Positions 41,632 through 58,261 of a stretch of 64,000 nt of DNA are shown piece by piece. The position numbers and the translations under genes are program-made. The stretch comes from a virus: positions 64,001-128,000 of the IMG/VR virus record IMGVR_UViG_3300031251_000003; one strand, written 5' to 3'. The number at the start of each line of letters is the position of its first letter. Within the stretch, counting starts at the first letter, position 1. The notes below the pieces were generated by a model. That model was not told where the DNA came from and searched no databases. It saw only the letters and a program-made list of their open reading frames with translations.

Positions 41632-42072
41632 ATGCAACACTTACTATCAGAGGCCGGTCGTAGCTTTTTGAGAGCTTTCGGTGCCTCACTTATTGTTTTG
41701 ATCCCTGGTATTTTGGCCGCGCCGAATATGAGTACGACGCTAGCTTTGAGCGTTGCTGGTCTGGTCGCAGCTTTAGCAGCAGGACTAAAGGCTGTCCAGG
41801 TCTTTGTACCACAGATTTCGTTCAAGTCTATTATGAAGGGAAAGATTGCACCGTACTACACTTGGGCCGACTCGTTTGTTCGAGCAGCAGTATCAGCTTT
41901 CATCGTCGGTATCTTGGGTTGGTTGGCAATGCCGACTCTAGACTTTAGCAAGTCAGTAATCTTCGGTTTACTCGTTGGTGCATTTGCAGCAGGGTTCAGA
42001 GCGCTTCAGGGTACCGGTACTGTAGGAGATGTCCCTCAGCCGGAAAAGGGGTTAGTTACTAAAAGCGGCTAA
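41632..42072 (+). CDS. holin-like membrane protein
   Basis: RBS AGGAGG; four TM segments in two repeats (SFLRAF/SFVRAA). Confidence 0.6.
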   Translation: MQHLLSEAGRSFLRAFGASLIVLIPGILAAPNMSTTLALSVAGLVAALAAGLKAVQVFVPQISFKSIMKGKIAPYYTWADSFVRAAVSAFIVGILGWLAMPTLDFSKSVIFGLLVGAFAAGFRALQGTGTVGDVPQPEKGLVTKSG

Positions 42073-42231
42073 GTGTGCTACACTGCAAAGATCGGTTCAG
42101 GGAACCGGTATGTGTGGCTGGGAGTAGCAAGCTTTCCTCCTTTCCCTTGCTACTCCCAAATTTTTCTGGTATAATCCTTGTGTGGTTGACCCTTATTTTT
42201 GGTTCGTTTGAACAACTAACTTATAGAAGCC

Positions 42232-42260
42232 TTGACACAGGCGAAGAATTTTGGTATACT
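42232..42260 (+). promoter_or_regulatory. promoter at start of RNA array
   Basis: TTGACA-17-TATACT. Confidence 0.85.
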
Positions 42261-42275
42261 GTAGTAGATGAGTGA

Positions 42276-42347
42276 GTCCCTATAGCTGAGTGGATTTAGC
42301 GGCGGTCTTCTAAACCGCATACGAGGGTTCGAATCCTTCTAGGGATA
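42276..42347 (+). tRNA. tRNA-Arg(UCU)
   Basis: Cloverleaf; GCGGT-CTTCTAA-ACCGC. Confidence 0.9.
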
Positions 42348-42393
42348 TAGAATAAGGTGGTTCGACTCCATGAAAGTCCGGCGAAAATTCTTC

Positions 42394-42422
42394 TTGACAG
42401 CAAGATCGTCAAGTGGTATCAT
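42394..42422 (+). promoter_or_regulatory. sigma70-type promoter
   Basis: TTGACA-17-TATCAT. Confidence 0.75.
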
Positions 42423-42701
42423 GTAGTTAGCAAGAAAGGGTTCCTCCGGTCGAAAGACTATGAGCCTTGTAGGTGTCGGGTGACCAGCCTGCTTGGTGAT
42501 TGGATGCAAAACCGGGAAGTGTCGATCCAGACTCTAATATCCTCCGCGAGAGGGTGGCGAGGAAGGGGAGCTTCGTAGGGGAGTAGAGAGAATCCTTCCG
42601 TATTTTGGAGAATAGACTGTATTGACGTGGGCGCACGGAACGACGACCATTCGTGGTATGCTAACCCTAGCCCCGTCAATAGAGTCTAGGCTCTATTTTA
42701 T

Positions 42702-42774
42702 GCTGTCCATCGTCTAATAGGAAGGACTCCGGCCTCTGCCGGGAACGGGAGTTCGATTCTCTCTGGGCCTAAGC
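42702..42774 (+). ncRNA. tRNA-like RNA with 4-nt anticodon loop and bulged acceptor
   Basis: D and T arms intact; CCGGC-CTCT-GCCGG. Confidence 0.6.
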
Positions 42775-42778
42775 AGAA

Positions 42779-42864
42779 CTAAGATTGAGGATCCCGGAAA
42801 CGTCTTTTAAAACTGCTCCATCGCTAACATCGTTGGGGTGAGCGAAAGCTGGGGGAGTCTTAGT
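42779..42864 (+). ncRNA. orphan RNA motif copy 1 (GAAACGUCU/AGCGAAAGC)
   Basis: Repeated motif with covarying stems. Confidence 0.65.
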
Positions 42865-42878
42865 GATGAGCATAACTT

Positions 42879-42950
42879 GGGGGATCAGTGCTAATGGGGA
42901 AACGTTGCGCTTGCACCGCAAAGAAAAGAGTTCGACTCTCTTATCCTCCA
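42879..42950 (+). tRNA. tRNA-Ala(UGC)
   Basis: Cloverleaf, G3:U70. Confidence 0.88.
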
Positions 42951-43048
42951 CTGCAAGGAAGAAGAGTAGGTTGAGGGACGACGAATCCCAAAATTACCCG
43001 AATCGATGAATCCTTTGAGGGTGTACGGGTCGTGCCGTTACCCAATAC

Positions 43049-43120
43049 GGGCGGTTAGTGCTAGTGGGAACACGCCGGTTTTGCATACCGGAGTCAGGAG
43101 TTCGACTCTCCTACTGTCCA
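43049..43120 (+). tRNA. tRNA-Ala(UGC)
   Basis: Cloverleaf, G3:U70. Confidence 0.88.
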
Positions 43121-43286
43121 TATGAAAGCTGATGCGGGATATAAGATGGTGGTAAGAAGGGGTACCGCACCAAATGAGTAGCCACCTTAAGCTTTCAGAA
43201 TTGCCGATGCCATTAGATCAGGTGGCTTAAGCAACAGCGGAACCTGCTAAAGTGGTTCGCGGGCAACCGGCGACAGGTTGCAACAT

Positions 43287-43358
43287 GGGCGAGTAGTTCA
43301 GCGGGAGAATAGCTGCTTTACACGCAGAAGATCGTAGGTTCGATCCCTACCTTGCCCA
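43287..43358 (+). tRNA. tRNA-Val(UAC)
   Basis: Cloverleaf. Confidence 0.88.
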
Positions 43359-43365
43359 CTACATA

Positions 43366-43543
43366 TTAGATTTGAATTAGCTGGCGAACCCCTTGACCGG
43401 GGTTGTGATGGGTTCGATTCCCAGGTGAGCGTGGTTGCCATGCGAGAGCCGTCAGTGAAGTTGAGTCATTCGGGATAGATCTCACGGTTACACTATTATT
43501 CTTAAATAATGGTAGTGTGTTGGTTCGAGTCCAACGGTCTAGC
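43366..43543 (+). ncRNA. tRNA-like RNA with two T-arms
   Basis: TGGG-TTCGATT-CCCA and GTTGG-TTCGAGT-CCAAC; ends pair. Confidence 0.55.
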
Positions 43544-43626
43544 CCCTATGTACCGCTGGAAGCCGGAAACGTCTCCGATGATACTTTAATCTAGGATATA
43601 GCGAAAGCTGGCTGAGGTATTAGGGC
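43542..43626 (+). ncRNA. orphan RNA motif copy 2
   Basis: AGCCG-GAAACGTCT...AGCGAAAGC-TGGCT. Confidence 0.65.
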
Positions 43627-43919
43627 GTCTTTGAATGACTTTATCTTAGACCGGAAGCGAATATGTACGGAGTCAAGCGTGACATATGGCTAACTCTAGT
43701 TGTCTCTAGAACTTGACAGAAGGAGACAACGTGGTCTTATACGGCGGTCGAGTCCCATTAAGTTGGGATTCCCGCCACCAATTTGAAACACCCGCTCCGG
43801 GGTAGGAGGCGTGAACTAGCGTAACTAGTTCGGAGGCTACTTGATCCTAATCGTAGCAGGGTTCGCCCTAAACAGCGTAATCAAGCGTGGTTAGCTCTAA
43901 CGGGTTAATCACGCTCCAT

Positions 43920-44002
43920 ACCCCGCTGGTGAAATTAGGTAAACACGCAGGTCTTAGAAATCTGTGCCGCGAGGCTTACGAGTTCGATTCTCGTGTGGGG
44001 TA
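43920..44002 (+). tRNA. tRNA-Leu(UAG)
   Basis: Cloverleaf with variable arm. Confidence 0.88.
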
Positions 44003-44219
44003 CTTGGGGTGAGGTAGTCGTTGTCCGGGATAGCTTCCTAAGGAATAGGCTAGCGCTGGCTGATTTGCGTAAATCTGCACACCCTAAAACTTGAGTAAGG
44101 GCGAAGTCTGCTACATGCAGCAGATAGGTTAGCTTGTGCCGTGGTGTAAGGAGCCTGGGGTCATAGAATCCCGACAGACCCTCTGTATTTCTTCCATTAC
44201 CGTGATGGTAATGTGTAGG

Positions 44220-44456
44220 ATGTCTGGATACGAAAGAGAACAACAAAAAGAAACTCAGTACACCGATACGGCGGATTTCCCCCGTTACTCTGACTATGCT
44301 GGTTTTAGTTCTTATTCTTATCCTACCTATCCTGCTCAGAGTCGAACGTACGTCGTTCAAACTAGTAATTGGGATCAGACACAAGACTACACCGCTTCTG
44401 GTCTAGCTGCTACTCAAGCAACCTGGACAAGAACTGAACTGCATAACACTAATTAG
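44220..44456 (+). CDS. hypothetical (possibly virion) protein
   Basis: MSGYEREQ...; Y/T/S-rich. Confidence 0.55.
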   Translation: MSGYEREQQKETQYTDTADFPRYSDYAGFSSYSYPTYPAQSRTYVVQTSNWDQTQDYTASGLAATQATWTRTELHNTN

Positions 44457-44464
44457 AGGTTAAC

Positions 44465-45076
44465 ATGGCTAAGAGAAAGTTTGACGATAAGGCTACGTGG
44501 CGCACCGATACTTGGGGTATCGATATGACCCAGCCTGCTCGTGCCGAGCGCGTATTTGACCCTAACGATACCGTTACCGATGATCCCACTAAGGGTGGAA
44601 TCGCTGGTTCTGGTGATAATACCAAGGTCACTCATGCTGCTGGTGTTATGTACACAGGATTGAATGATAATCCGGCTGTCGCTGTAGCTCGTGCATACGA
44701 CGATTTCCAGAATCTTACTCCTGCTGTAACTGCGACTTTGACAACATCTTTAACGGGCGCGAACAATGACGTGACTTTCAGTGCTCTTCGTTCCGGTGCA
44801 TCAGGAAACGCAATATCTGTAACCTATGTCGATCCAGGTGGTGCTACTGCTACTCTTGGGGTAACAGTCTCCGGTACCGATATCACGGTCAACCTAGGTC
44901 GAGCAGCATCAGCTATTAACACCACAGGTACGTTGCTCATCGCAGCAGTACAGGCAGTTCCCGCAGCAGCGGCATTGGTCAATGTGGCCAACGCAGCAGG
45001 TAATGATGGAACTGGTCTAGTAACTGCTTTGACTAAGACGAACCTTGCTGGTGGTTTGGAAGCTTTCTACTCTTAA
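44465..45076 (+). CDS. virion structural protein, paralog of 31..612
   Basis: RBS GAGGT; shared Ala/Thr/Gly-rich domain. Confidence 0.65.
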   Translation: MAKRKFDDKATWRTDTWGIDMTQPARAERVFDPNDTVTDDPTKGGIAGSGDNTKVTHAAGVMYTGLNDNPAVAVARAYDDFQNLTPAVTATLTTSLTGANNDVTFSALRSGASGNAISVTYVDPGGATATLGVTVSGTDITVNLGRAASAINTTGTLLIAAVQAVPAAAALVNVANAAGNDGTGLVTALTKTNLAGGLEAFYS

Positions 45077-45079
45077 CGC

Positions 45080-45108
45080 TTGACAGCCAGTACCCTGTGT
45101 GATATAAT
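45080..45108 (+). promoter_or_regulatory. sigma70-type promoter with palindrome over -10
   Basis: TTGACA-17-TATAAT; CCTGTGT-GATATAAT-ACACAGG. Confidence 0.85.
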
Positions 45109-45142
45109 ACACAGGTAAGGGAAAACGACAGAAAGGATTCCC

Positions 45143-45499
45143 ATGGCACTTTCAGCAGCAGAGCGCGAGACAGTGATTGTCATCTCGGATGCAGACGACT
45201 TCTGGACTATCCATACTTGTCAGCGCCGGATGGTGACCCAGCTTCTCAAGAACCCGGTCGCCAAGATCCTTGAGAACACCCTCTTCGAGGGTACTCGGTT
45301 CCTCGTTGCTGAGGTTCCTGCGAATGGTATCACTGTTCGCAAGTCGAACGGTCGCAAGGCCAAGTCTTCGCAGCCGCGTAAGGCGACTCTCCGGACAATG
45401 CCGGGTGAGAAGTGCGGCGGCACCAAGTCTGATGGAAGTAAGTGCGGTGCAATCGCAGTGAGTGGTACGGGGTTCTGCCGCCATCATCAGAGCAAGTGA
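45143..45499 (+). CDS. hypothetical protein with C-terminal CCCH Zn finger
   Basis: RBS GAAAGGAT; C...DGSKC...FCRHH. Confidence 0.75.
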   Translation: MALSAAERETVIVISDADDFWTIHTCQRRMVTQLLKNPVAKILENTLFEGTRFLVAEVPANGITVRKSNGRKAKSSQPRKATLRTMPGEKCGGTKSDGSKCGAIAVSGTGFCRHHQSK

Positions 45500-45644
45500 A
45501 GTGCAGTTGAAGTGAAGTAGTAGTTGAAATTGTAGTTAGTCTTCTTGGGAGGGTCAGGAGTCGGTTGTGTCCTTCGATCTAAGGAGGTATACAAATTACG
45601 ACTAAGGTAGTAAGAGGGACTCCTGACCCTCACAGGGGACTTTA

Positions 45645-45719
45645 CGGGTGTGTAGCTAAGCGGTTCAAGGCAGGGGACTCTTAATCCCAAGATCACAGGT
45701 TCGAATCCTGTCACACTCA
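45645..45719 (+). tRNA. tRNA-Lys(CUU)
   Basis: Cloverleaf. Confidence 0.9.
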
Positions 45720-45726
45720 TCTAAGC

Positions 45727-46027
45727 ACGGTGGATAGGAACTATCCGCAGGAGCGATACGAGGATACAAGACCGATCAGGGGCCACTGTGAGGTCTTCTC
45801 TACCTCTGGCAGGGTCGCGGTGGGTACTAACTCATCTAGTGTATATGCCGGTCTTAGCCCGAATGCAGATGTTTCAGCGTATACATCTAGTAGGGCTTTA
45901 CTTTGTAACACCCCTCTCAAGTACACGGAGGAAGGATACGAACGGTACGCAGCCAAAAGGGTCTGCCATATTGAGAACCGAGTAACAATGCTCAATACTT
46001 ACCTGATTTAATCAGGTATTTTACCGT
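45727..46027 (+). ncRNA. large orphan structured RNA
   Basis: Ends pair; several internal complementary blocks. Confidence 0.55.
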
Positions 46028-46061
46028 CATCCGTCTGGTCGTACCGGGATGACGTTAGAAA

Positions 46062-46147
46062 CTCCAAGTGGTGGAATTAGGTATACACGTCAGGTTGAGA
46101 GCCTGATGGCCATCGCGGTCTTGCAGGTTCAAATCCTGTCTTGGAGA
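46062..46147 (+). tRNA. tRNA-Leu(GAG)
   Basis: Cloverleaf with variable arm. Confidence 0.9.
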
Positions 46148-46169
46148 TCTCTTACAGGAGGTAAGAAAT

Positions 46170-46298
46170 ATGAATCCAATCTTTTGGCTTCTCTTGATTC
46201 TCTTGATTGTCATCCTTTTGGGTGGAGCAGTATTCAGCCATCTAATCTGGGTATTGATCATTGTAGTTGTCATCCTTTTCTTCCTCTTCGGAAGGTAA
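46170..46298 (+). CDS. 42-aa hydrophobic peptide
   Basis: RBS AGGAGGT; MNPIFWLLLILLIV... Confidence 0.65.
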   Translation: MNPIFWLLLILLIVILLGGAVFSHLIWVLIIVVVILFFLFGR

Positions 46299-46346
46299 GT
46301 CATGGCCGTTCCCTATTCTTATGCGGTCTGGGGTAACGGCCACCAT

Positions 46347-46419
46347 GGTTCTCTAGCTCCAACGGTAGAGCGGCTGTTTGAAGCACAGCGCGTTGGCGGT
46401 TCGAATCCGTCGGGAACCA
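46347..46419 (+). tRNA. tRNA-Phe(GAA)
   Basis: Cloverleaf. Confidence 0.9.
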
Positions 46420-46591
46420 CTGTAGTCGAAGATCCAAGAGCCTCGCTCCACTAAAGTTGGCTGTCTTATAATACAGCACCGGAAGAGAAACTCAAGGGGA
46501 GACGAAATTACGGAGACAAATAGATTAAGCTCCGTAAGATTTATGTTCTATCCTGATGCGTGAATGTTGATCACTAACAAAAGGAGAGAAC

Positions 46592-46792
46592 ATGAAGACA
46601 GCAGTAGGTACTGAAGATCTAACAGGCGCAGTAGTGGTTGATGTTGGCTACAATGATGTGACTCTTGAGAAGGATGGAGTCAGGTTTACTCTTGAACTTG
46701 AGTATGAAGCCGACTACAACAGTTTCTGCGAAGGTAGTTGCTCTTGTTGTGGTAGTTCTGGCTCATCGTACTTCCGGGCCTATAAGGAATAA
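46592..46792 (+). CDS. small Cys-rich hypothetical protein
   Basis: RBS AAGGAG. Confidence 0.65.
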   Translation: MKTAVGTEDLTGAVVVDVGYNDVTLEKDGVRFTLELEYEADYNSFCEGSCSCCGSSGSSYFRAYKE

Positions 46793-46842
46793 AGAATCGT
46801 CTGTCACGCCGGATCCTGACGTAAAACTTAGTCCGGCCACAT

Positions 46843-46915
46843 GGCTCTATAGACTAGTTGGTTAGGTCGCTACCCTCTCAAGGTAGAAGTCGGAGTTCGA
46901 GTCTCCGTAGAGCTA
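46843..46915 (+). tRNA. tRNA-Glu(CUC)
   Basis: Cloverleaf. Confidence 0.9.
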
Positions 46916-46919
46916 CTAT

Positions 46920-46998
46920 GATCACGCAGCCACAGGGCAGGGCGCGGCGACCCGACACTTTCTCGGGGAACATGGAGGTTCGAATCCTCTCGGGATCA
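46920..46998 (+). ncRNA. aberrant tRNA-like RNA
   Basis: T-arm and acceptor present; extra nucleotides before anticodon arm; loop CACTTTC lacks U33. Confidence 0.5.
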
Positions 46999-47230
46999 CT
47001 GTGGGATAGAAAGGGCAACAAAGCGATATAACTTGACGCATCAGGGAGAGTTAGTCCCCTACTATCCCCCTATACTTTAAGAACGTGTGTGTGACGCTGT
47101 GACGCAGCAGAGGCACACTTTCGGGCGGGGGCGTCACCCCACGGTACCGGCGCGGTTTGGGACAACCGTTGTAAGACGACCGGAGGCGGCTTAGCGGCTG
47201 CTGAGAGGGTTCTCAAATGTTCTTATACTA

Positions 47231-47301
47231 TGGCGTATCGTTCAACGGCAGGACGGGTGGCTGTTAACCATCTAATTCAGGTTCGAATCCTGGTATGCCA
47301 G
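47231..47301 (+). tRNA. tRNA-Asn(GUU)
   Basis: Cloverleaf. Confidence 0.9.
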
Positions 47302-47372
47302 CTTTAAATTCGTAGGGCACTACTCGCTGGTCGGACTAGTTTGCTGGCGAGCAACCCTACGGCGCGTTTCAT

Positions 47373-47443
47373 TCCCCGGTCGTCTAACGGTAGGGCAGAT
47401 GGCTGTTAACCATCGTATGAGGGTTCGATTCCTTCCTGGGGAG
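47373..47443 (+). tRNA. tRNA-Asn(GUU)
   Basis: Cloverleaf. Confidence 0.9.
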
Positions 47444-47607
47444 CTTCGCAGTACATTGTTCGTCGTCCGGGAGCATCGCGAGGCATAACGGGTAGCTCAG
47501 GGTTAAATTCCCTGATAGGGCGGCTAGCCCTAGACTGAACGTATTGATCCTTACTTGTTAAAGCGGGTTTGGGGAATGTGGCAATGTATTGCGCCGGTTT
47601 TAATCGT

Positions 47608-47648
47608 CGCGGATTAGAGAAAAGGTCATCTCGTGAGTCTCATAAACT
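47608..47648 (+). pseudogene. orphan 5' half of tRNA-Met(CAU)
   Basis: Acceptor 5' strand, D arm and anticodon loop, then HNH gene. Confidence 0.7.
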
Positions 47649-47652
47649 TTTC

Positions 47653-48048
47653 ATGAGTTTACGAACACTAATAGTAGAGATGCCATACAAAGATCCCGAA
47701 AAACAGAAAGAAGCACAGGCTAGATTAAGTGCTGCTTATTATCAAAAGAATAAGAAAAAGATGAAAGTTCGTGCAAAGCAGTATACATACGAACATCGAG
47801 AACGTCTTAAGCAGTTTTTGATAGAGATAAAGTCTGCTCCATGTATGGACTGTGGAAATTCGTTTCCATCATGTGTAATGGACTTTGATCACCGTGAGGG
47901 TGAAGAGAAAAACGGTTGTGTGTCTGTAATGGTGAACCGCGCACTAAGCTTAGATAGAATTAAACAAGAAGTATCTAAGTGCGACCTAGTATGTGCGAAC
48001 TGTCATCGGATTCGAACCTCCACGCGGAAACAAGCCCTGGTGGGCTAG
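47653..48048 (+). CDS. HNH homing endonuclease (start at 47653 or 47680)
   Basis: CMDC..MDFDH..KCDLVCANCHRIR. Confidence 0.88.
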   Translation: MSLRTLIVEMPYKDPEKQKEAQARLSAAYYQKNKKKMKVRAKQYTYEHRERLKQFLIEIKSAPCMDCGNSFPSCVMDFDHREGEEKNGCVSVMVNRALSLDRIKQEVSKCDLVCANCHRIRTSTRKQALVG

Positions 48049-48096
48049 GGAGTCTCATAAACTCTCTCATGGTCAGTTCGATTCTGACTTCCGCTA
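48023..48096 (+). tRNA. tRNA-Met(CAU), overlapping HNH 3' end
   Basis: CGCGGAA/TTCCGCT acceptor with 1:72 mismatch; GGAGT-CTCATAA-ACTCT. Confidence 0.7.
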
Positions 48097-48250
48097 TTTC
48101 AAAATGCAACTAGGCCGACATAGTTGCGCCATATGGTGAAATGATCGGCATACAATTCTGTCTAACCTAGATAGGAGCGCAAATAATCATGAAGTAAGTT
48201 ATAACCTTTGCTCGTATTTGAAGGTTAAATGATTATTCCGCATATACGTG

Positions 48251-48357
48251 AGACGAATGCCGCAGAAGCCGGAAACGTCTAGCAGGGTCAAGTCCGCGAT
48301 AATCAGCTTGATGCATTCCCTGTGAATACAGCGAAAGCCGCCGCCGAGGTTGAGTCT
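48251..48357 (+). ncRNA. orphan RNA motif copy 3
   Basis: GAAACGTCT 48272, AGCGAAAGC 48330. Confidence 0.55.
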
Positions 48358-48494
48358 GGATTACAGTGTATGTGATTATATGATATGATTTTAAGTTTGA
48401 TTCATCTTGACTGTGGAGCCGAAAGCTGAGAAGCAGATCAAGAAACTAATGTAGATACATCGAGGGGTCGCGCATCTCTAACACGCGAATATTT

Positions 48495-48584
48495 GGATAG
48501 GTACTCAAGAGGCTTAAGAGGATGGTTTGCTAAACCATTAGAGGATGTCAAAGTCCTGCCAGAGTTCGAATCTCTGTCTATCCG
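48495..48584 (+). tRNA. tRNA-Ser(GCU)
   Basis: Cloverleaf, long variable arm. Confidence 0.9.
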
Positions 48585-48655
48585 TGTAAGACGATCCGAA
48601 GACGATGGGAACGTACGCGCATATCATGCGTGGTGACAGTCTATTCGAGGATCAG

Positions 48656-48728
48656 TGAATTGTAGCTCAACGGTTAGAGCGTTCCCTTCATATGGGAAAG
48701 GTAGTCGGTTCGACTCCGATCAATTCCA
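48656..48728 (+). tRNA. tRNA with CAU anticodon (Met or Ile2)
   Basis: TTCCC-TTCATAT-GGGAA. Confidence 0.8.
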
Positions 48729-48816
48729 TTAAAGAGGATGGTAGCCGATAGGTTGGCGTGGGTGTGCTGATTCGGTGAGATGGTTCGTCCTGCCTCATAA
48801 GACCACGCGAGAATTT

Positions 48817-48903
48817 GGATATATGGCTGAGTGGATTAAAGCGCTAGTCTTGAAAACTAGTATGTGTGAAAGCGCATCCGGGGTTCGAATCCCTGTGTAT
48901 CCG
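48817..48903 (+). tRNA. tRNA-Ser(UGA)
   Basis: Cloverleaf, long variable arm. Confidence 0.9.
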
Positions 48904-49083
48904 TAGGATGGTTTACGACGTGGTAGTGTACGTTTGGCGCTTAAGTGCGTTCTGGCCGAGAATCAAAGGCATCCATCCTTGGGGTTAGAGACTTAGGATT
49001 CTGAGGCGAGCAACCTGAAATGGTAAGGAACGAATAACCGTTGCTGCGGCCTGTCGTTCAAACTGGATCAAGTCTCTTCTTTT

Positions 49084-49170
49084 GGAAACGTGGCCGAGAG
49101 GATTAAGGCGCAGACCTGGAAAGTCTGTTGGTATTTACGTGCTACGCAGGTTCGAATCCTGTCGTTTCCG
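49084..49170 (+). tRNA. tRNA-Ser(GGA)
   Basis: Cloverleaf, long variable arm. Confidence 0.9.
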
Positions 49171-49175
49171 CTCAT

Positions 49176-49310
49176 GGGGTGAAAATGGAGAGTCGTCTAG
49201 TTCGATTCTAGACTTGTGGATGGTTCCACGGCGGTTCAATTCCGCGTTATAAACTTGTGGCAGCAAATAGGGTAGCCCCCGCTCAGAGGGTTCAATTCCC
49301 TTACACTCCA
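49176..49310 (+). ncRNA. tRNA-like RNA with three T-arms and G3:U70 acceptor
   Basis: Three TTCRATT hairpins; GGGGTG/CACTCC-A. Confidence 0.6.
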
Positions 49311-49356
49311 TTTATTTACAATTAGGATTACTAATTACTCTTGTATAATAGATAGA

Positions 49357-49785
49357 ATGATTAATTCTAGAGTTTTAAATGAGAAAATAAAGGCCCAAAA
49401 GGAGATTACGAATCAACGATTCGCTGATTCAGAAAAAGCTGTTGCAGCAGCTTTAGCTGCTCAAGAAAAGGCAACAGCGGCAGCATTTGCGGCTGCAAAG
49501 GAAGCTGTCATCAAGGCAGAAATTTCCCAACAGCGTGTCAATGAAAGTCAGAATGAATTCCGTGGCCAGCTTAAAGATCAAAATGCCGCTACGGAACGTA
49601 ATATGATGCCTCGTGCTGAAACAGAGTTATTGGTTAGAGAAATTCGAAGTAGTATTCAGGATCTTCAGAAGAGCCGAGATACCATCACAGGCAAGTCAAT
49701 GGGGATAGCTAACTTGACTAGCTCTGTCTATGCGTTTATCTTTGCTATTGCAGCTATTGCAGCTATCGCAGGCCACTTTCTCTAA
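49357..49785 (+). CDS. coiled-coil protein with C-terminal TM anchor
   Basis: EKAVAAALAAQEKA..NEFRGQL. Confidence 0.75.
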   Translation: MINSRVLNEKIKAQKEITNQRFADSEKAVAAALAAQEKATAAAFAAAKEAVIKAEISQQRVNESQNEFRGQLKDQNAATERNMMPRAETELLVREIRSSIQDLQKSRDTITGKSMGIANLTSSVYAFIFAIAAIAAIAGHFL

Positions 49786-49804
49786 TATGCTATAATGTGA
49801 TCCC

Positions 49805-49957
49805 ATGAGGATCATTGGTGAACATTTCACTAGGCAGGGTAAGCCTAAGGTTACTTATGCGACCTTCCAGGGCGCTCAGAAGAAAGCACTGAAGCTTCAT
49901 ATGCGGGCTTATCAGTGTGGGTTTTGTGGCAAGTATTATCTAACGCATAAAGTTTAG
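49805..49957 (+). CDS. small basic Zn-ribbon protein
   Basis: RAYQCGFCGKYYLTH. Confidence 0.6.
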   Translation: MRIIGEHFTRQGKPKVTYATFQGAQKKALKLHMRAYQCGFCGKYYLTHKV

Positions 49958-50039
49958 GAAGATATCCGAACGGTTAGGAAGCGCCCTCGAAAAGCGCCGG
50001 TGTTCATAGCACTTGGGAGTTCGAATCTCCTGTCTTCCG
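49957..50039 (+). tRNA. tRNA-Ser(CGA)
   Basis: Cloverleaf with variable arm. Confidence 0.8.
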
Positions 50040-50255
50040 CTTATCGATAATCCGGGGATAGACCTAGGATTGTGACTGGATTAGGATCGCAACCTGATTA
50101 CGGCAATCTCATGATGGTCAGCTAGGGCCAGCACCTAGAATCGATTTCTAAAAGAACGACTCACGAAAGACTAGTGTAGGAAGGTAAGGGACGCAGGGTT
50201 GGGATGACGATCTCGACGCGCCTATTTCTGTATCTTTCGTGGGAAGGTTTAACAC

Positions 50256-50327
50256 ACGCCTTAGCCAATGGATAGGCAGATCGGCTCCAACCCGATCCAA
50301 AGGTGGGTTCGATTCCTACAAGGCGTG
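50256..50327 (+). tRNA. tRNA-Trp(CCA)
   Basis: ATCGG-CTCCAAC-CCGAT. Confidence 0.82.
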
Positions 50328-50349
50328 CTCAGTCTTATAAGGAGGATGT

Positions 50350-50682
50350 ATGCGAGTTCTATTACTGGTCTTGGTATTCTTGGTAATGGCAACGTCCGCG
50401 TTAGCATCTCCACCCCGCCCTGCGAGGGCTTTCGATACCTTATGGTGTTGGCAATTGAAAGTTCAGTACACGCTCAAGCTGGGATGGCAAGCTAAGCATT
50501 GGAAATGCAACCTAGGTAGTTGGGATCCGTATGCTAAAGAATGGACATATCGGGTCTGGGTTGATGAAGTAAAAGGTAGTCGTGTTTATCATGACTATGT
50601 GATCCTCTTTACAGACTTTGCTACTAAGAATTGGACACGAGTTCCCCATGGATATCCTGAAACAGGTGGTCTAAAGGGTTAA
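50350..50682 (+). CDS. secreted hypothetical protein
   Basis: RBS AAGGAGG; signal peptide ending ALA. Confidence 0.7.
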   Translation: MRVLLLVLVFLVMATSALASPPRPARAFDTLWCWQLKVQYTLKLGWQAKHWKCNLGSWDPYAKEWTYRVWVDEVKGSRVYHDYVILFTDFATKNWTRVPHGYPETGGLKG

Positions 50683-51022
50683 AGTGTGTACATCTCTTTC
50701 ACTGGATTCCAATGGTGTTCATGATTACAGTGACTGTGGAGCGAGAGCTTAGCACCAAGCGCACTCCTATTACTTGCACGGTTGGCTGATCGGTGTAAGC
50801 GCCACTCTTATAAGGTGGTTTAAGCTAGGTTCGACTGATATCCTGAAACAGGTGGTCTAAAGGGTTAAAGTGTGTACATCTCTTTCACTGGATTCCAATG
50901 GTGTTCATGATTACAGTGACTGTGGAGCGAGAGCTTAGCACCAAGCGCACTCCTATTACTTGCACGGTTGGCTGATCGGTGTAAGCGCCACTCTTATAAG
51001 GTGGTTTAAGCTAGGTTCGACT
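50651..51022 (+). repeat. perfect 186-bp tandem duplication
   Basis: 50651-50836 = 50837-51022; first copy holds a truncated tRNA-Ile. Confidence 0.92.
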
Positions 51023-51035
51023 CCTAGACCGTGTA
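50962..51035 (+). tRNA. tRNA-Ile(UAU)
   Basis: CCACT-CTTATAA-GGTGG. Confidence 0.85.
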
Positions 51036-51054
51036 CTTGTGCTATAATGTAGTC

Positions 51055-51549
51055 GTGAACGAAGAACGACAACAAGCTTGGAACCATTACTTCCAGACCG
51101 GCGATAGAGAACCAATCATCAAAGCCTACTGGAAGTCGATCAGTTACATTGCTCATGCTCGTTATCCGGCCTACGAAGAAGATATGTTCCAGGTCGGGCT
51201 AATGGGTTTGCTCAAGGCTATCAGTCGTATCGATGTCAATCGAGTCAAGTCTATTGATGCTTGGGTATGGTTGAATGTTCGTGGAGAAATGTTTAACGTA
51301 AAGCTTGCTAAGCCAACTCTTCCGATTGTTATCGAGTCAGAGAGGTTTGCTATCGAGGAAGACAAAGATCCAAAGATCTACATGCAACAGGCATTCGAGG
51401 TTCTAAACGAGCGCGATAGGTATATTCTTGATAGTATTTACTATAAGAATAAGACACGTCAGGCTCTAGGCAAGGAGTTGGGCATTACCGGCATGAGAGT
51501 CGGCCAACTAGAACAAAGAGCATTAAAGCAGTTGAGAGAAGTATTGTAA
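51055..51549 (+). CDS. sigma70-family RNA polymerase sigma factor
   Basis: EDMFQVGLMGLLKAI (region 2); LGKELGITGMRVGQLEQRALKQLR (region 4). Confidence 0.88.
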   Translation: MNEERQQAWNHYFQTGDREPIIKAYWKSISYIAHARYPAYEEDMFQVGLMGLLKAISRIDVNRVKSIDAWVWLNVRGEMFNVKLAKPTLPIVIESERFAIEEDKDPKIYMQQAFEVLNERDRYILDSIYYKNKTRQALGKELGITGMRVGQLEQRALKQLREVL

Positions 51550-51622
51550 GCACAGGTACTCAAGCGGTTAAGAGGCCACTCTGATAAGGTGGTATGCGAA
51601 AGTTCGAATCTTTCTCTGTGCA
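51550..51622 (+). tRNA. tRNA-Ile(GAU)
   Basis: Cloverleaf. Confidence 0.88.
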
Positions 51623-51697
51623 TAGGATCGGATTATTGATCCAAAGTAAGGCGACCAATATCGTGGCGCTAGCGAAAATCACAAAAACGACTTTACA

Positions 51698-51797
51698 GAT
51701 ATTTTCATTTGTAGGTTCGAATCCTACTCCCCGCTCTTCACGCGGGGATGGCGAAATTGGCAAACGCGCTGGGCGATCAGCCCGGTTGTGAAATATC
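51698..51797 (+). ncRNA. circularly permuted tRNA-like RNA (YrlA-like topology)
   Basis: Order T arm, loop-closed acceptor, D arm, hairpin; ends pair. Confidence 0.75.
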
Positions 51798-51875
51798 AAT
51801 CAAGCGAAAGTTGTGTTAGCTAGAATAAGGCGCGTGATGCTAGCCTTTTATTTAAGGTTATATGCCTCTTATAGT

Positions 51876-52020
51876 CTAGTGAGGATCAAAGAAACGTCTC
51901 ATGGTATGGGCTTCCAAACCTATACTACGTGTAGCTCAAATGGGAGAGCCGCCGCCTGAAAAGCGGTGGGTTGGGGGTTCGAGTCCCTCCACGAAAGTAG
52001 CGAAAGCTTTGGGAGTTAGT
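51876..52020 (+). ncRNA. orphan RNA motif copy 4 containing a tRNA-Phe(GAA)-like domain
   Basis: TCAAA-GAAACGTCT...[tRNA-like 51925-52000]AGCGAAAGC-TTTGG. Confidence 0.65.
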
Positions 52021-52051
52021 CGAGTGAAAAGTGGTTAATTAGCCTTATTCC

Positions 52052-52374
52052 GGGAGCGTCCCGGTTTCGATGTGGAATTACGGTTCTGACTTCAATCCGT
52101 GGAAACATGATGGCCACGTAAAAAACATGTAACGTACTAAATGCAAACGCTAATATGAGCGTCCCGGACTTCATCCCTGATTGGGTAATGGATGAGTCCT
52201 TAGTTGCTGCTTAACTAGGAAACCTAATAAGCAGAGACTCTCAGGAAAGACTGAGTGGCGGAGGGGCGACTGCCCTCCATGCTTGACAAGTACGACCGTG
52301 ATGGGTATAATCTATGATTGTAAGCGTTAGTTCAACGATTACCGCAGACGCGAGTTCGACTCTCGCCGCTTCCA
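52052..52374 (+). ncRNA. ssrA: tmRNA
   Basis: G3:U acceptor, CGGTTTCGA, T arm; tag ANANMSVPDFIPDWVMDESLVAA at 52143-52214. Confidence 0.92.
52283..52311 (+). promoter_or_regulatory. consensus promoter inside tmRNA
   Basis: TTGACA-17-TATAAT. Confidence 0.65.
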
Positions 52375-52409
52375 TATGTACTATATTTCACTCCCTCCAA
52401 AGGAAGTTA

Positions 52410-52604
52410 ATGCACGATAGATCAGACTACCATATCCACAAGGATGAGCAAGGGAAACTACACAGGTGTTACCACAACTGCCGAAATATCTTACCCAACT
52501 GGCAGTTCTGGGTTGGTATGACGATGGGATTCCCTCTCGAACATCTGATTTGGCAACATCTTTGGCCCTTCTATTTAGTTAGTAATCTTTTGGGCCTTTC
52601 GTGA
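52410..52604 (+). CDS. hypothetical protein
   Basis: MHDRSDYHIH..; RBS AAGGA. Confidence 0.6.
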   Translation: MHDRSDYHIHKDEQGKLHRCYHNCRNILPNWQFWVGMTMGFPLEHLIWQHLWPFYLVSNLLGLS

Positions 52605-52672
52605 CCTTGGCCGAGTGGTTTAGGTATGGCTCTGCAAAAGCTATTACATCAGTTCGAATCTGATAGGTCACT
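52601..52672 (+). tRNA. tRNA-Cys(GCA)
   Basis: Cloverleaf, U73. Confidence 0.9.
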
Positions 52673-52784
52673 TGAAGTACAATGTTTCATACAGGATCTA
52701 CCTCTGGCTCATAGCTAGGCGGTTTAGATTTGAATGGTTGGAAAGGCTGGTTCGTAAACCTATAAACCAGAGATGGAGAAGGTA

Positions 52785-52985
52785 ATGGCACAGTTGCAGA
52801 AGACATTCATTGCACGATTCTACGATAGCTCACGACATCAATTTGCTACCAACAAGGTAGTCGCGGCAAACTTCGTGATGGCAGGAGAAGTTGCCCATGA
52901 GTGGGCAGAAGATCACTACCATGGACGTGCAACGAAGATCAAACTAGAATCCTCCAAAGGTGGAGAAGTTGTGTGTTCCGACTAA
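52785..52985 (+). CDS. hypothetical protein upstream of rpsL
   Basis: RBS GGAGAAGG. Confidence 0.6.
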   Translation: MAQLQKTFIARFYDSSRHQFATNKVVAANFVMAGEVAHEWAEDHYHGRATKIKLESSKGGEVVCSD

Positions 52986-52997
52986 AAGGAAGGGTGT

Positions 52998-53399
52998 ATG
53001 GCGACAATTAATCAGCTTGTAAGAAAGGGCCGAACGGCCAAGAGGAAGAAGGATAAGTCCCGTCATTTAAAGGGTAACCCTCAGGTTGCCGGTACTGTCT
53101 TGCGCGTCATGGTTCTCAACCCTTGTAAGCCGAATTCTGCCGAACGTCATTCGTGCAGGGTTAGACTCTCCAATGGCGGTGAGGTAACCTGTTACGTCCC
53201 TGGTCGTGGTATGAATATCCAGGAGCACAGCAGAGTCCTTGTTCGCGGCGGAATTGCTCCTGATCTCCGTGGAGTCAAGTACAAGGTTGTCCGTGGTAAT
53301 CGTGACTGTGCCGGGGTCAGTGATGAGATGGGTGGAAAGAAGAATTCCACACCAGTTCCTCGTAAGAATTCTCGTTCACTCTACGGAGTGAAGAAGTAG
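52998..53399 (+). CDS. rpsL: ribosomal protein uS12, divergent, phage-encoded
   Basis: [29 protein letters not shown]...DL.GV, RSLYGVK. Confidence 0.95.
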
Positions 53400-53511
53400 T
53401 GTTACATCACCTTATCGCTCGTTCCGATGCCTGTTGACGCAGGCTTAGGGAGCAAAACTGAAGCGTCAACTTCGTCTCAATATCGGCACAAGCCGAAGCG
53501 ATAAGGATCTT

Positions 53512-53595
53512 GCCCGCCTGGTGGAATGGTATACACGGTTGGCTTAAACCCAACTGCCTATAACGGGCTTGCGAGTTCGAATCTCGCGGTGGGTA
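53512..53595 (+). tRNA. tRNA-Leu(UAA)
   Basis: Cloverleaf with variable arm. Confidence 0.9.
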
Positions 53596-53617
53596 CTTGG
53601 TAAGGATGGTAGTTCAT

Positions 53618-53701
53618 ACCGGTGTGCTGGAATTAGGTATACAGGGGCGTCTCAAAAACGTCTGCTCAAAAGGCATGAGAGTTCGATTCTCTCCATCGGT
53701 A
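53618..53701 (+). tRNA. tRNA-Leu(CAA)
   Basis: Cloverleaf with variable arm. Confidence 0.88.
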
Positions 53702-54000
53702 CTGTCGGTATCACGCTGGCGCTCTAAGGAGTCGAGGCCGAATATCGGGATGCATCTCGTGAGAGAAGGGGATCTTGACGCCCGGAGTTTTGTCTTTATG
53801 TCTGAAACTCCTTTATGTTCAATAAACTAACTCATAACGGTACAGCACCTGAGTCAGTGGATGGAGTCGTCTAGTTCTCTAACAGTCAAATTGGCGTCCT
53901 TTCTAGATAAGGTAATCCTCTAAGATTGAGATTGACTAGCGGCGAACTTGAGGTACGGAAGTACCTTAGCCGACGACATTTATGATAAACTGTAGTATTA

Positions 54001-54073
54001 CCCTCCATAGCTTCAACGGTAAAGCACGGGCCTTTTAAGCCATGAGTTCTGGGTTCGAATCCTAGTGGGGGGA
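54001..54073 (+). tRNA. tRNA-Lys(UUU)
   Basis: Cloverleaf; imperfect anticodon stem. Confidence 0.78.
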
Positions 54074-54150
54074 CTTGAGATCTAGGGTGTGGGTTATACG
54101 TCCACGTTTCCTTATAGGCGATGCGCTCGGTAGTGTCGTGATCTCTATTA

Positions 54151-54223
54151 GCCCTCTTAATTCAGTGGACAGAATGTTAGCCTTCGAAGCTAAACGTCGG
54201 GAGTTCGAATCTCTCAGAGGGTA
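54151..54223 (+). tRNA. tRNA-Arg(UCG)
   Basis: TTAGC-CTTCGAA-GCTAA. Confidence 0.88.
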
Positions 54224-54237
54224 TCTAGAAAGAAGAC

Positions 54238-54266
54238 TTGACAACCAGACAACAATGAGGTATACT
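54238..54266 (+). promoter_or_regulatory. sigma70-type promoter
   Basis: TTGACA-17-TATACT. Confidence 0.8.
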
Positions 54267-54272
54267 TAAGCC

Positions 54273-54491
54273 GTGGCTAAGAAACACAAGCCGAAGGAAA
54301 AGACTGAAACGAAGTTTTCGAAGTATCTTCCCGGCGAGAGTACATGGACGGGACGACGCAATAAGACGAGGCAGGATCTAATCCCAATGGGTCAACGTGA
54401 TCGCGTTGAAACAGCACAGAAGATCAGATCCTTCTCGATGCAGCATAAGCCATCTTGCACTAAAGATTGGCTGAAGTTGCGAGTACATTGA
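54273..54491 (+). CDS. small basic protein (leaderless)
   Basis: GTG 6 nt after -10. Confidence 0.55.
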   Translation: MAKKHKPKEKTETKFSKYLPGESTWTGRRNKTRQDLIPMGQRDRVETAQKIRSFSMQHKPSCTKDWLKLRVH

Positions 54492-54653
54492 TAACTTAGG
54501 TGGTGGTACCGGGAACCCCGATCCGGTGACGCGGAAGCGTATGGTGTAAGGGTTATGCACGCCACATGTACTAAGCCTTGGGATGCGATTCTCAAGGTAC
54601 CCTTTCTAGCAGGGGATGTGCCTGGGCACCGCTCCAGAGCCAGCTAGATGTAA

Positions 54654-54727
54654 CTGGATGTAGGAAAGCTTGGTAATCCGTCTGCTTTGGGAGCAGAAGA
54701 GCGTGAGTTCGAATCTCACCGTCCAGA
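54654..54727 (+). tRNA. tRNA-Pro(UGG)
   Basis: Cloverleaf. Confidence 0.9.
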
Positions 54728-54730
54728 CTG

Positions 54731-54939
54731 AAGAGTTAGGAGGTTGGCCTAAAGGCAGCCACCCTTTAAAGAGTAGACTTACGTGAGCCGACCACGCTGA
54801 GCGAAAGCCTATTTGAGAGTCATGATCGCGCAAAGGTGACAATGATCCCGCGCCCGGAATGGCAACATGACGAAGACCAAGGAAACGACTTGGAAGAATA
54901 AACGGGTTAGTCTTTTGGCGTAACAGCACACTATCTCTT
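54731..54939 (+). ncRNA. 23S rRNA GTPase-associated-centre (H43-H44) mimic with 143-nt insert
   Basis: TAGGAGGTTGGCCTAAAGGCAGCCACCCTTTAAAGAGT...GCGTAACAGCACACTA closed by AAGAG/CTCTT. Confidence 0.85.
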
Positions 54940-54949
54940 TTAGAATTGA

Positions 54950-55024
54950 CTGGATATAGCTCAGCCTGGTTAGAGTACGCCCTTGGGGAGGGTGAGGCCG
55001 CAAGTTCGAATCTTGCTATCCAGA
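54950..55024 (+). tRNA. tRNA-Pro(GGG)
   Basis: Cloverleaf. Confidence 0.88.
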
Positions 55025-55027
55025 TAA

Positions 55028-55098
55028 CAGGATGTTGTATAGTGGTAATATACTTGCTTCGGGAGCATGAGTCAGAGGTTCGAGTCCTCTCATCCTGA
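55028..55098 (+). tRNA. tRNA-Pro(CGG)
   Basis: Cloverleaf. Confidence 0.85.
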
Positions 55099-55154
55099 TA
55101 TGTACTAGCTTTCTTATGGTGATCTCGCCCTACTAATGGGTAGGTGATAAATAA

Positions 55155-55322
55155 ATGAGACAACATATAGAAGGTGGATTACTTTCATTCTTAGGATTAT
55201 GTGCTGCTGCTCTCTTCTTTGGTCTTCTCGTATTTGGAGGATCCATTAGCGATTGGCCATTAGAGGTAGCAGGCTTCTTTGCTCTAGCTATTGCGTTCGT
55301 TCTGGAACGCTTAGGGTTGTAA
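55155..55322 (+). CDS. 55-aa membrane peptide
   Basis: MRQHIEGGLLSFLGLCAAALFF... Confidence 0.6.
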   Translation: MRQHIEGGLLSFLGLCAAALFFGLLVFGGSISDWPLEVAGFFALAIAFVLERLGL

Positions 55323-55557
55323 GACTCCGCTGGAATGCGGCGCATAGGGAGGTTCTTCGAGCCGTTGATCTATGTGATGGTGGAAACCGTGCCCGTTGAG
55401 CCGGGTAAAGGTACGACTAGCCATCGTATCGAAAGCGTAGGGCAGCGCGGTTGTAGCTGGTGGTGAGGGCGCAGCTATGGTATGGCTAAACGCCGAATCG
55501 TTCGAAGCGACAAGGCTTACGGGGTTGGTAATTCTCACGACTTGCCGATCCCGCCAA

Positions 55558-55629
55558 TGCGGTGTAGTCTAATGGTAGTGACTTCCGGCTCTGAACCGGA
55601 CAGTGTTGGTTCGAATCCAGCCTCCGCAG
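55558..55629 (+). tRNA. tRNA-Gln(CUG)
   Basis: Cloverleaf. Confidence 0.88.
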
Positions 55630-55919
55630 CTAACTCTAACGAGTAACAAGTGATTACAGCCGCTGATTGCCACGAGCGGTAAAGGATGGTCTTTTATGCC
55701 GGACGCTAGAATATGGCAGGTATAAAACTAAGTGTGTGGGTACCCGTAGCAATCACAGCCGCCGTTTTGTAATCCAGGATGTGGATTGTCGAGGTATGGT
55801 ATAGACACCACTTCTAGAAATCCACCATACATGCGCTACCTTGGAAAGGTGTAACGGTTCATAACCTGCCTTTCCTCCAATCCCCACTTAGGCTGAAATA
55901 TACCTAGGTGGGGAACCAA

Positions 55920-56000
55920 GCATATGTTGAGCAAAGGCTAGCTCCGCTGTCTGTAAAACAGCCGTCTCCGACTATGTAGGTTCGAATCCTACCATATGCA
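55920..56000 (+). tRNA. tRNA-Tyr(GUA)
   Basis: Cloverleaf with variable arm. Confidence 0.85.
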
Positions 56001-56004
56001 CTGA

Positions 56005-56076
56005 TGGGAAATCGGTTAATGGTTAAACCAAGAGCCTTTGAAGCTCTGACTTTGGGTTCGAGTCCCAATTTCCCTA
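56005..56076 (+). tRNA. tRNA-Gln(UUG)
   Basis: Cloverleaf. Confidence 0.85.
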
Positions 56077-56113
56077 TAGGTCAAGCTGGTGGGCCTGAAG
56101 CACTAGCATTTAC

Positions 56114-56187
56114 GGAAGCGTAGCTCAGTTGGTTAGAGCACCGGCCTGTCACGTCGGTAGTCGCGGGTTCGAGTCCCGTCGTTTCCG
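56114..56187 (+). tRNA. tRNA-Asp(GUC)
   Basis: Cloverleaf. Confidence 0.93.
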
Positions 56188-56418
56188 CTCTTTGGACGAT
56201 GACCTGTGGAAGGATTTATGCCAAACTTCCTAAAGGGTAAAAAGCTAGCGAGTAAGGCGAAGCTGGGGCACCACAAAATGCGTCAGTGGATGAAAGCTAG
56301 CGAATCAAGCTGCTGTAGGCATAACGGTAGTGTAATGAGCGAGTCTAACTCAAGTATTTTCGCTCCACCGTCCAAGGTTTTAAGTTGACCAATCATAATT
56401 TGTATGATATACTAAGTC

Positions 56419-56592
56419 ATGGTTACTAAAACGGACATAAAAACTCTTGAATTCGATGTAGATGGGAAGACAATCGAGCTTCAAGTTAAATGTGAGTTGG
56501 TTAGTAAAACTTGGAAACTTACGATTAATTGTAAGGATCCCGGTCGTGTTGAGTTTGAAACCATCATGAGTAAGATGGGTGTTATAAGATAA
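56419..56592 (+). CDS. hypothetical protein (leaderless)
   Basis: TTGACC-17-TATACT then ATG 5 nt later. Confidence 0.6.
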   Translation: MVTKTDIKTLEFDVDGKTIELQVKCELVSKTWKLTINCKDPGRVEFETIMSKMGVIR

Positions 56593-56596
56593 ATAA

Positions 56597-56742: not shown

Positions 56743-56748
56743 ATACTT

Positions 56749-56823: not shown

Positions 56824-56835
56824 CCTTAATAAAAA

Positions 56836-58257: not shown

Positions 58258-58261
58258 CTTT

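Follow-up and report, generated by a model that had tools for sequence, protein, structure and literature searches.

The phage tRNA array described here encodes a family of small RNAs that share a portable structural module of about 45 nt, which we term the handle. It is contained in a stretch of 64,000 nucleotides (hereafter the window) covering bases 64001-128000 of a 158,106-bp IMG/VR phage record rated complete (IMGVR_UViG_3300031251_000003), where 46 tRNA genes and one transfer-messenger RNA (tmRNA) gene occupy positions 42.2-60.9 kb, every one of them on the + strand. Two 9-mers recurring in this array are the opposite strands of the core of one RNA module, and this module is real, structured and uncatalogued. 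It is carried by three metagenomic genomes, the window encoding six such RNAs and a related 72-kb IMG/VR contig (L124) at least five, the third carrier being a 105-kb contig (L128, NCBI GCA_034680565.1). In most annotations, phage tRNA arrays consist of tRNAs and 'spacers'. In the present case, the spacers hold a small-RNA family built on a single conserved and portable module, which carries tRNA mimics and is even grafted into a ribosomal RNA (rRNA) mimic.

Anatomy and copies of the handle

The first of the two 9-mers, GAAACGWCT, occurs five times in the window with 1.09 occurrences expected and the second, AGCGAAAGC, also five times with 0.33 expected, and for neither of them was this number reached in any of 100 shuffles. 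All occurrences are located on the + strand and within the tRNA array, with the two partners of a pair being separated by 25-99 nt and in one case following each other in reverse order. The five pairs proposed in a sequence-only reading of the window are matched exactly in position, including the reversed pair at 54800/54882 (Table 1). While the copy number of five given in that reading holds for the exact 9-mers, a sixth copy was found by allowing one mismatch, which changes the closing G-C pair to A-U.

The 9-mers resolve to G+AAA+CGNCU and AGCG+AAAG+C, which comprise the innermost helix P2, the adjoining loop and the last pair of the helix P1. The outermost helix P0 has a length of 3-13 bp. 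Inward of P0, the 5' strand contains a bulge of 3-4 nt followed by a GA that faces GA(G) of the 3' strand, resulting in a purine-rich, asymmetric junction. The subsequent helix P1 is free in sequence and fixed in length, with 6 bp throughout including the closing G-C pair, although its copy 3 version bears a bulge of 2-3 nt. P1 is followed by an A-rich internal loop opposing AAA and AAAG and by the 4 bp of P2 (CGNCU:AGCG, with N bulged), and the variable cargo is placed innermost. The kink-turn-like GA/GA junction beside a 3-4-nt bulge that had been suspected from the sequence is thus present. Its bulge contains 4 nt in copies 1, 2, 4 and 6 and in two orthologues of copy 3, and 3 nt in copy 3 of the window and in copy 1 of L124. 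The GA of the 5' strand and the GAG of the 3' strand are invariant among six short copies, and variants of the junction are found in copy 6 (AA/UAG) and in copy 4 of L124 and L128 (GA/UAG in both). The existence of P0 is supported by the duplex energies of its flanks, which average -10.6 kcal/mol for cognate compared to -8.1 kcal/mol (sd 2.6) for non-cognate combinations, with a value of -14.8 kcal/mol for the long P0 of copy 2. A fold of AGC-GAAA-GCU as a free GNRA hairpin was rejected, as it is broken in copy 1 of L124 (AGCGAGGUC) and copy 4 of L128 (GGCGAAAUU), which both keep P2.

Table 1. Copies of the handle in the window and their counterparts in the two related contigs. Bulged nucleotides of copy 3 are placed in square brackets.
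Copy	Position	Strand	GAAACGWCT strand	AGCGAAAGC strand	Structure	Cargo	L124	L128
1	42778..42864	+	42797	42841	P0 ACUAAGAU/GUCUUAGU; bulge UGAG; GA; P1 UCCCGG/CUGGGG; loop AAA / AAAG; P2 CGUCU:AGCG	35-nt hairpin	1885-1954	
2	43542..43629	+	43566	43600	long P0 GCCCCUAUGUACC / GGUAUUAGGGC; bulge GCUG; GA; P1 AGCCGG/CUGGCU; loop and P2 as in copy 1	25-nt hairpin		
3	48259..48350	+	48272	48330	P1 AGCCGG / CCG[CC]GCC with bulge	49 nt, Y-shaped	6310-6396	13042-13136
4	51875..52021	+	51891	51999	P1 UCAAAG/CUUUGG	99 nt, side hairpin and second tRNA-Phe(GAA)-like domain (51925-51997)	9230-9451	about 15237-15541
5 (circularly permuted)	54800..54890	+	54882	54800	AGCG-AAAG-[CCUAUUU]-GAGA-[hairpin GUCAUG...CAUGAC]-GAAGA-[CCAAGG]-AAA-CGACU		12020-12103	
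6 (new)	51668..51823	+	AAAACGACU (51684-51692)	AGCGAAAGU (51803-51811)	P0 CUAG/CUAG; P1 UCACAA/UUGUGU	110 nt, tRNA-like, circularly permuted	9020-9152	

As anticipated in the earlier reading, the cargo is variable, its slot ranging from 25 to 110 nt among the window copies and accommodating tRNA-Phe-like, permuted tRNA-like or plain hairpin structures. Copy 1 is flanked by two degenerate tRNA-like units. The tRNA-Phe-like domain in copy 4, which is located directly upstream of the tmRNA gene (52052), contains two mismatches that weaken its acceptor stem and carries no CCA. Copy 3, which is the best-conserved copy across genomes, had been described as poorly paired, a view that has to be revised, since its 3' strand contains a bulge and both orthologues pair better (GGCCGG with CCG[UA]GCC and with CCG[CAA]GCC).

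Copy 5 is a true circular permutation of the module. In this case, a hairpin caps P0 and the open end of P2 leads into the insert of a mimic of the GTPase-associated centre (GAC) of 23S rRNA (54731-54939). This mimic matches the Rfam LSU model at 54734-54791 and its counterpart in L124 shows 94% identity over 35 nt to residues 1054-1088 of E. coli 23S rRNA. A permutation of a different kind is found in the cargo of copy 6, a tRNA-like RNA in which a T arm is followed by a loop-closed acceptor, a D arm and an anticodon-like hairpin. In the same copy, UCACAA (51678-51683) may pair either with UUGUGU (51811-51816) or with UUGUGA inside the cargo (51787-51792, the register of the YrlA model), and these closing helices are mutually exclusive.

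Conservation, covariation and distribution

The tRNA arrays of L124 and L128 are both syntenic with the array of the window. The ribosomal protein uS12 of L124 is 65% identical to its counterpart in the window phage, and L128 was found via a 203-aa array protein of equal identity (65%), with a stretch of 20.6 kb being examined. Queries with the helicase, the sigma factor and uS12 retrieved only a single relative in IMG/VR. Between the genomes compared, proteins are about 52-69% identical, and copy 3, with 82% identity over 89 nt to its L124 orthologue, is among the best-conserved non-coding segments. In its cargo stem, CAGGG/CCCUG is replaced by CGAGA/UCUCG, and in the outer part of P1, AGC/GCC becomes GGC/GCC. 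The orthologues of copy 4 are again located directly upstream of tmRNA and enclose unrelated non-tRNA cargos of 179 nt in L124 and 249 nt in L128. In L128, the U-A pair of P2 is replaced by C-G (CGACC/GGCG) and the loop is shortened to 2x3, and in L124 the closing G-C pair has become G-U. A shortening of the loop to 2x3 is also observed in the variant orthologue of copy 1 (GGAACGUCU / AGCGAGGUC). In the permuted copy of L124, the hairpin stem GUCAUG/CAUGAC is replaced by AUCAGA/UCUGAU.

An additional L124 copy, which was found with the covariance model described below and is syntenic with copy 6, encloses a second tRNA-Ser(GGA)-like domain in normal order. Both loci have the D arm UGGCGAAAUUGG in common, which indicates that the cargo was rearranged while the handle was kept. 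The permuted copy is absent from the L128 locus, where it was lost together with the GAC mimic. At the corresponding site (16770-16870), directly after tRNA-Arg(tcg), only the last ~20 nt of the mimic remain (CUGGCGUAAUAGUACACUAUC) and no uS12 gene was called in the locus, suggesting that both translation-mimic parts are dispensable in the L128 lineage.

As judged from these sequences, compensatory changes have occurred in P1, P2 and cargo stems across the relatives. The covarying flanking helix noted in the window, with the pairs UCCCGG/CUGGGG, AGCCGG/CUGGCU and UCAAAG/CUUUGG, is thereby confirmed. The proposal of a modular element common to several array RNAs is supported, and the element is conserved in two related phages. 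In ten aligned copies, many of them paralogous and in an alignment fitted to the model, standard pairs account for 80.8% of P1 cells compared to 66.3% in shuffles, and double-sided changes were counted in 16 cells compared to 6.9 expected, neither value being reached in any of 500 shuffles. Pairing falls to 23-49% if the partner strand is slid by 1-3 columns. In the same copies P2 is invariant.

A covariance model (R1), trained on five copies with copy 3 and the L124 copy 4 excluded, recovers these untrained copies, comprising the three copy-3 orthologues and copy 4 of L124, with scores of 16.6-20.5 bits (20.5 bits and an E value of 0.0055 for copy 3 of the window). On the whole 158-kb genome, covariance model matches were found within the tRNA array only. 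When scanning region 42000-61000 of the window against Rfam 15 with cmscan, we found no family on the handle copies, neither at the gathering threshold nor at E values up to 10. The orphan status that had been assigned to the motif is upheld, the nearest family being YrlA, with 19.1 bits at a cut-off of 69 and on the cargo of one copy.

Searches with exact patterns were carried out on larger datasets. A scan of IMG/VR with 17 fixed bases gave more than 119 matches, all of them by chance or in coding sequences without flank pairing, and a stricter scan with GAG added gave seven, none with P1 pairing or in a tRNA context. The stricter scan of 185,579 species genomes (one for each species) returned 85 matches compared to about 68 estimated by chance, and the few with full P1 pairing are located inside long open reading frames (ORFs) without upstream GA. 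A scan of JGI metagenomes with the copy-3 pattern retrieved the L124 phage again (L130) and two likely chance matches (L129, L131). In L129 (1255-1356), both 9-mers are followed by a Shine-Dalgarno sequence and by an ORF whose product, as read from its sequence, resembles a TonB-dependent receptor. This match is probably fortuitous, with 13.8 bits for R1 and a fold that conflicts with P2. Within the reach of exact patterns that allow for short cargos, the module appears to be confined to this small phage clade.

GOLLD (RF01998) and ROOL (RF03087) are likewise phage-borne, structured RNAs adjacent to tRNAs, and some of them enclose a tRNA. Both differ from the handle, which is a ~45-nt module repeated in many small RNAs rather than a single RNA of 600-800 nt, and neither was matched in the Rfam scan of the window array.

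A putative protein-docking platform and alternative explanations

By analogy, we tentatively favour the view that the handle acts as a protein-docking platform in the manner of Y RNAs. Handle-bearing RNAs would be cut from polycistronic transcripts of the tRNA array, and one protein, either from the host or an unrecognised phage protein, would dock on the handle. Different heads, including plain hairpins, tRNA mimics and the rRNA GAC mimic, could thereby enter the same particle, following the logic of Y RNAs, where a Ro60-binding stem is combined with a tRNA-like head. In support of such docking, the copies are non-random, strand-specific and restricted to the array, and P1 and the cargo vary freely around loop sequences and a 6-bp spacing that are maintained, as would fit a site that is read by a partner. 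Moreover, the module works in either connectivity, with the permuted copy being kept in two genomes by means of a compensatory hairpin, and a helix-loop-helix site could be bound in both arrangements. If the handle docks a protein, it would define a new family of ribonucleoproteins and offer a ~45-nt bait for finding the partner.

A close likeness is found in the YrlA-type Y RNAs of bacteria and phages (RF02553), which are bound by Rsr/Ro60. Like the handle RNAs, they are modular small RNAs encoded among phage tRNA genes, in which a stem bearing a short conserved motif for protein binding is joined to a variable head, frequently a mimic of tRNA. The Rsr-binding motif of YrlA RNAs was described as GNCGAAN0-1G (Chen et al., 2014, PMC4201824), and the handle strand AGCGAAAG matches five of its six fixed letters. 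Copy 6 aligns end to end with the YrlA model (51678-51795), at a score close to the 20.6 bits that the YrlA-like RNA of mycobacteriophage Bxz1 (95733-95858) itself reaches with RF02553, whereas every handle copy remains far under the cut-off and no match of this model was found on the other copies. The order of the YrlA head, with a T arm followed by a closed acceptor stem-loop and a D arm, is found in copy 6 only. In copy 4 and in L124 9020-9152, the tRNA-like heads follow the normal order, and plain hairpins are present in the remaining copies. Unlike in YrlA, the handle has extra conserved parts (the GAAACGNCU strand, the GA/GAG junction and P0), and in copy 6 it emerges at the position of the variable arm instead of the anticodon stem.

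The outer half of the handle resembles kink-turn modules as found in Kt-7, the 5' stem-loop of U4 snRNA, box C/D RNAs, SAM-I and T-box RNAs, where a canonical helix and a short bulge, typically of 3 nt, are followed by tandem sheared G.A / A.G pairs that open the next helix, and where a tight kink with A-minor contacts is bound by proteins of the L7Ae family. The other strand of Kt-7, GGGGAGCC, contains a GAG as does the handle, and like kink-turns the handle is a portable module that is used in many RNA contexts. From its sequence, the handle is predicted to be kinked. Beyond this half, the conserved A-rich loop and P2, which are located 6 bp further, are outside any described kink-turn unit.

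Several observations weigh against the docking interpretation. The kink-turn assignment is insecure, given a bulge that usually contains 4 nt and is not always of 3, an A-U replacing the second pair in three copies, and a purine loop of nearly symmetric 4x5 form in the permuted copies. In YrlA, the Rsr-binding motif is located near the 5' end in the terminal stem, whereas five of the six window copies have the Rsr-like motif next to the cargo on their 3' strand and hence in opposite polarity; it comes first only in the permuted copy. Folding of single sequences gives no significant stability (z-scores of -0.95 to +1.06), and with three genomes and many paralogues, the covariation counts do not reflect independent events. 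With respect to a partner, a Ro60/Rsr gene usually resides close to YrlA in the same genome, and no TROVE/Ro60 domain (PF05731) was matched in G000, the 158-kb genome that is complete according to CheckV, or in G001. DUF2828 (PF11443) is likewise absent from the phage and its relative, and the complete genome also contains no match for the L7Ae family. Finally, the proteins encoded in the array, comprising the 203-aa beta-sandwich-like protein, the HNH endonuclease, the sigma factor and the VWA protein, look unrelated to RNA binding.

Among these proteins, the VWA ORF was considered as a Ro60 fragment, for which a sequence search of the PDB provided no support, and the 203-aa protein was dismissed as RNA-binding partner based on its predicted beta-sandwich or sheath-type fold. 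uS12 is unlikely to be an obligatory partner, as none was called in the 20.6-kb L128 locus that has kept copies 3 and 4. In a more specific and rather unlikely version of the docking proposal, the system would be a Ro-less counterpart of phage Y-RNA systems. Its handle would be based on a kink-turn, with no sequence relationship to the stems of known Y RNAs, and would bring a protein of the host or an unrecognised one of the phage to several decoys (tRNA-Phe-like, tRNA-Ser/Leu-like, the GAC mimic and bare handles). Together, these would titrate or redirect RNA-surveillance or anticodon-nuclease defences of the host during infection.

A distinct function, which we consider unlikely, would lie in processing or RNA stability. 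In this case, the handle would be a leader-trailer helix through which non-tRNA units of the array transcript are recognised by an endonuclease (RNase III, RNase E or a phage enzyme) or kept safe from exonucleases at their ends. The processing stems of bacterial rRNA act in this manner, and in these stems and in the spacer RNAs of tRNA operons, the flanks of an RNA pair into a long stem within a polycistronic stable-RNA transcript. The handle brackets its cargo in a comparable way by pairing its 5' and 3' flanks in five of the six window copies, and the tRNA-like cargos are without proper acceptor ends. There are also no dedicated promoters or terminators beside the copies and, with the array being read from few promoters and ending at one terminator, every unit must be cut out. 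Conversely, the permuted copy brackets nothing and is yet conserved, and the small copies with fast-evolving and featureless cargos, such as copy 1 and its L124 counterpart, offer nothing worth processing. The conserved loops, the fixed 6-bp spacer and the bulged base all exceed the known needs of RNase III or RNase E sites, and leader-trailer stems are not known to have a conserved multi-loop module in common across unrelated cargos or to exist in a permuted form.

With about 18 nearly invariant loop and helix nucleotides placed between free helices, the handle might also constitute an autonomous RNA core that operates without protein as small self-cleaving ribozyme, aptamer or rigid tertiary connector, and its tolerance of circular permutation and of variable optional stems is shared by hammerhead and twister ribozymes. 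We regard this possibility as improbable in light of the fact that no ribozyme or riboswitch model of Rfam matches at E values up to 10, that the loop shrinks from 3x4 to 2x3 in variants (copy 1 of L124 and copy 4 of L128) and that there are no downstream genes for riboswitch control. A hammerhead cannot be completed by sequence reading, with no CUGAUGA strand and a loopless stem III, and the GUC cleavage triplet is not conserved, since the variable base of CGNCU is either U or A. Hammerhead, hairpin and bulge-helix-bulge (BHB) readings were all rejected, as the anatomy of the core was by reasoning unfit for any of them and no model matched.

It is highly improbable that the copies are functionless paralogous repeats that arose by duplications within the array and are decaying. 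In favour of this view, such arrays expand by duplication, the extra upstream sequence CUAR-YGARRAUC is shared among copies 1, 4 and 6 and the L124 copy 4, and L128 has lost the permuted copy along with the GAC mimic. Decay is however difficult to reconcile with loops that do not vary between copies whose helices and cargos diverge, with the compensatory substitutions seen in P1, in P2 and in stems of the cargo, and with the conservation of copy 3, which ranks among the highest of non-coding segments.

The slightest probability is assigned to a derivation of the outer half of the handle (P0, GA/GAG and P1) from helix 42 and kink-turn 42 of 23S rRNA, the stalk base that binds uL10, in which case the copies would act as stalk-base decoys beside the mimic of the GAC (H43-H44). 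The E. coli sequence GGC|CCA|GA|CAGCCAG ... CUGGUC|GA|GUC has the same layout as copy 2, its segment CUGGUCGAGU is identical over 10 nt to copy 1 of L124, and the GAC mimic of the same array hosts the permuted copy. This likeness was recognised post hoc, chance alone is estimated to give about three matches of 10 nt between copies and rRNA, and P1 of copies 4 and 6 is quite different. Furthermore, R1 misses H42 in the E. coli rrn operon (rrnH), where its best match of 11.2 bits is located elsewhere, and blastn-short finds chance 12-14-mers only, except for the GAC (H43-H44) itself. A copy of 16S h24 or of other rRNA segments was similarly rejected, as only chance 12-14-mers were found.

The tRNA array and its other features

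Upstream of the array are tail and baseplate genes. Consensus promoters of the sigma-70 type are found at 42232, 42394, 45080, 54238 and 60387, and its single strong terminator is located at 61071-61101. Protein genes in the array encode uS12, a sigma-like factor, an HNH endonuclease, a stand-alone VWA protein and the 203-aa protein, whose predicted (Atlas) model resembles a beta-sandwich or sheath-type domain. The VWA-domain ORF (phrog_7371), which contains no TROVE part, is kept in the arrays of the window (58638-59366) and of L128 (19853-20551). ORFs of HNH homing endonucleases reside inside both tRNA arrays at differing locations (47569-48048 in the window and 9091-9612 in L128). Directly after the GAC mimic, a consensus promoter drives a conserved and very basic ORF of ~72 aa without family match (54238-54491 in the window, about 12150-12420 in L124 and 16860-17120 in L128). 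Just upstream of tRNA-Ile(tat), the window contains a direct repeat of ~100 nt with a period of 186 nt (50680-50780 and 50866-50965), with AGCGAGAGC in each unit. Finally, both relatives encode a tRNA with an 8-nt anticodon loop, to which ARAGORN assigns the four-base anticodon 'taag' (L124 14389-14464 and L128 19230-19305). It aligns with tRNA-His(atg) of the window (57208-57284) and could be a quadruplet-decoding or otherwise unusual tRNA.

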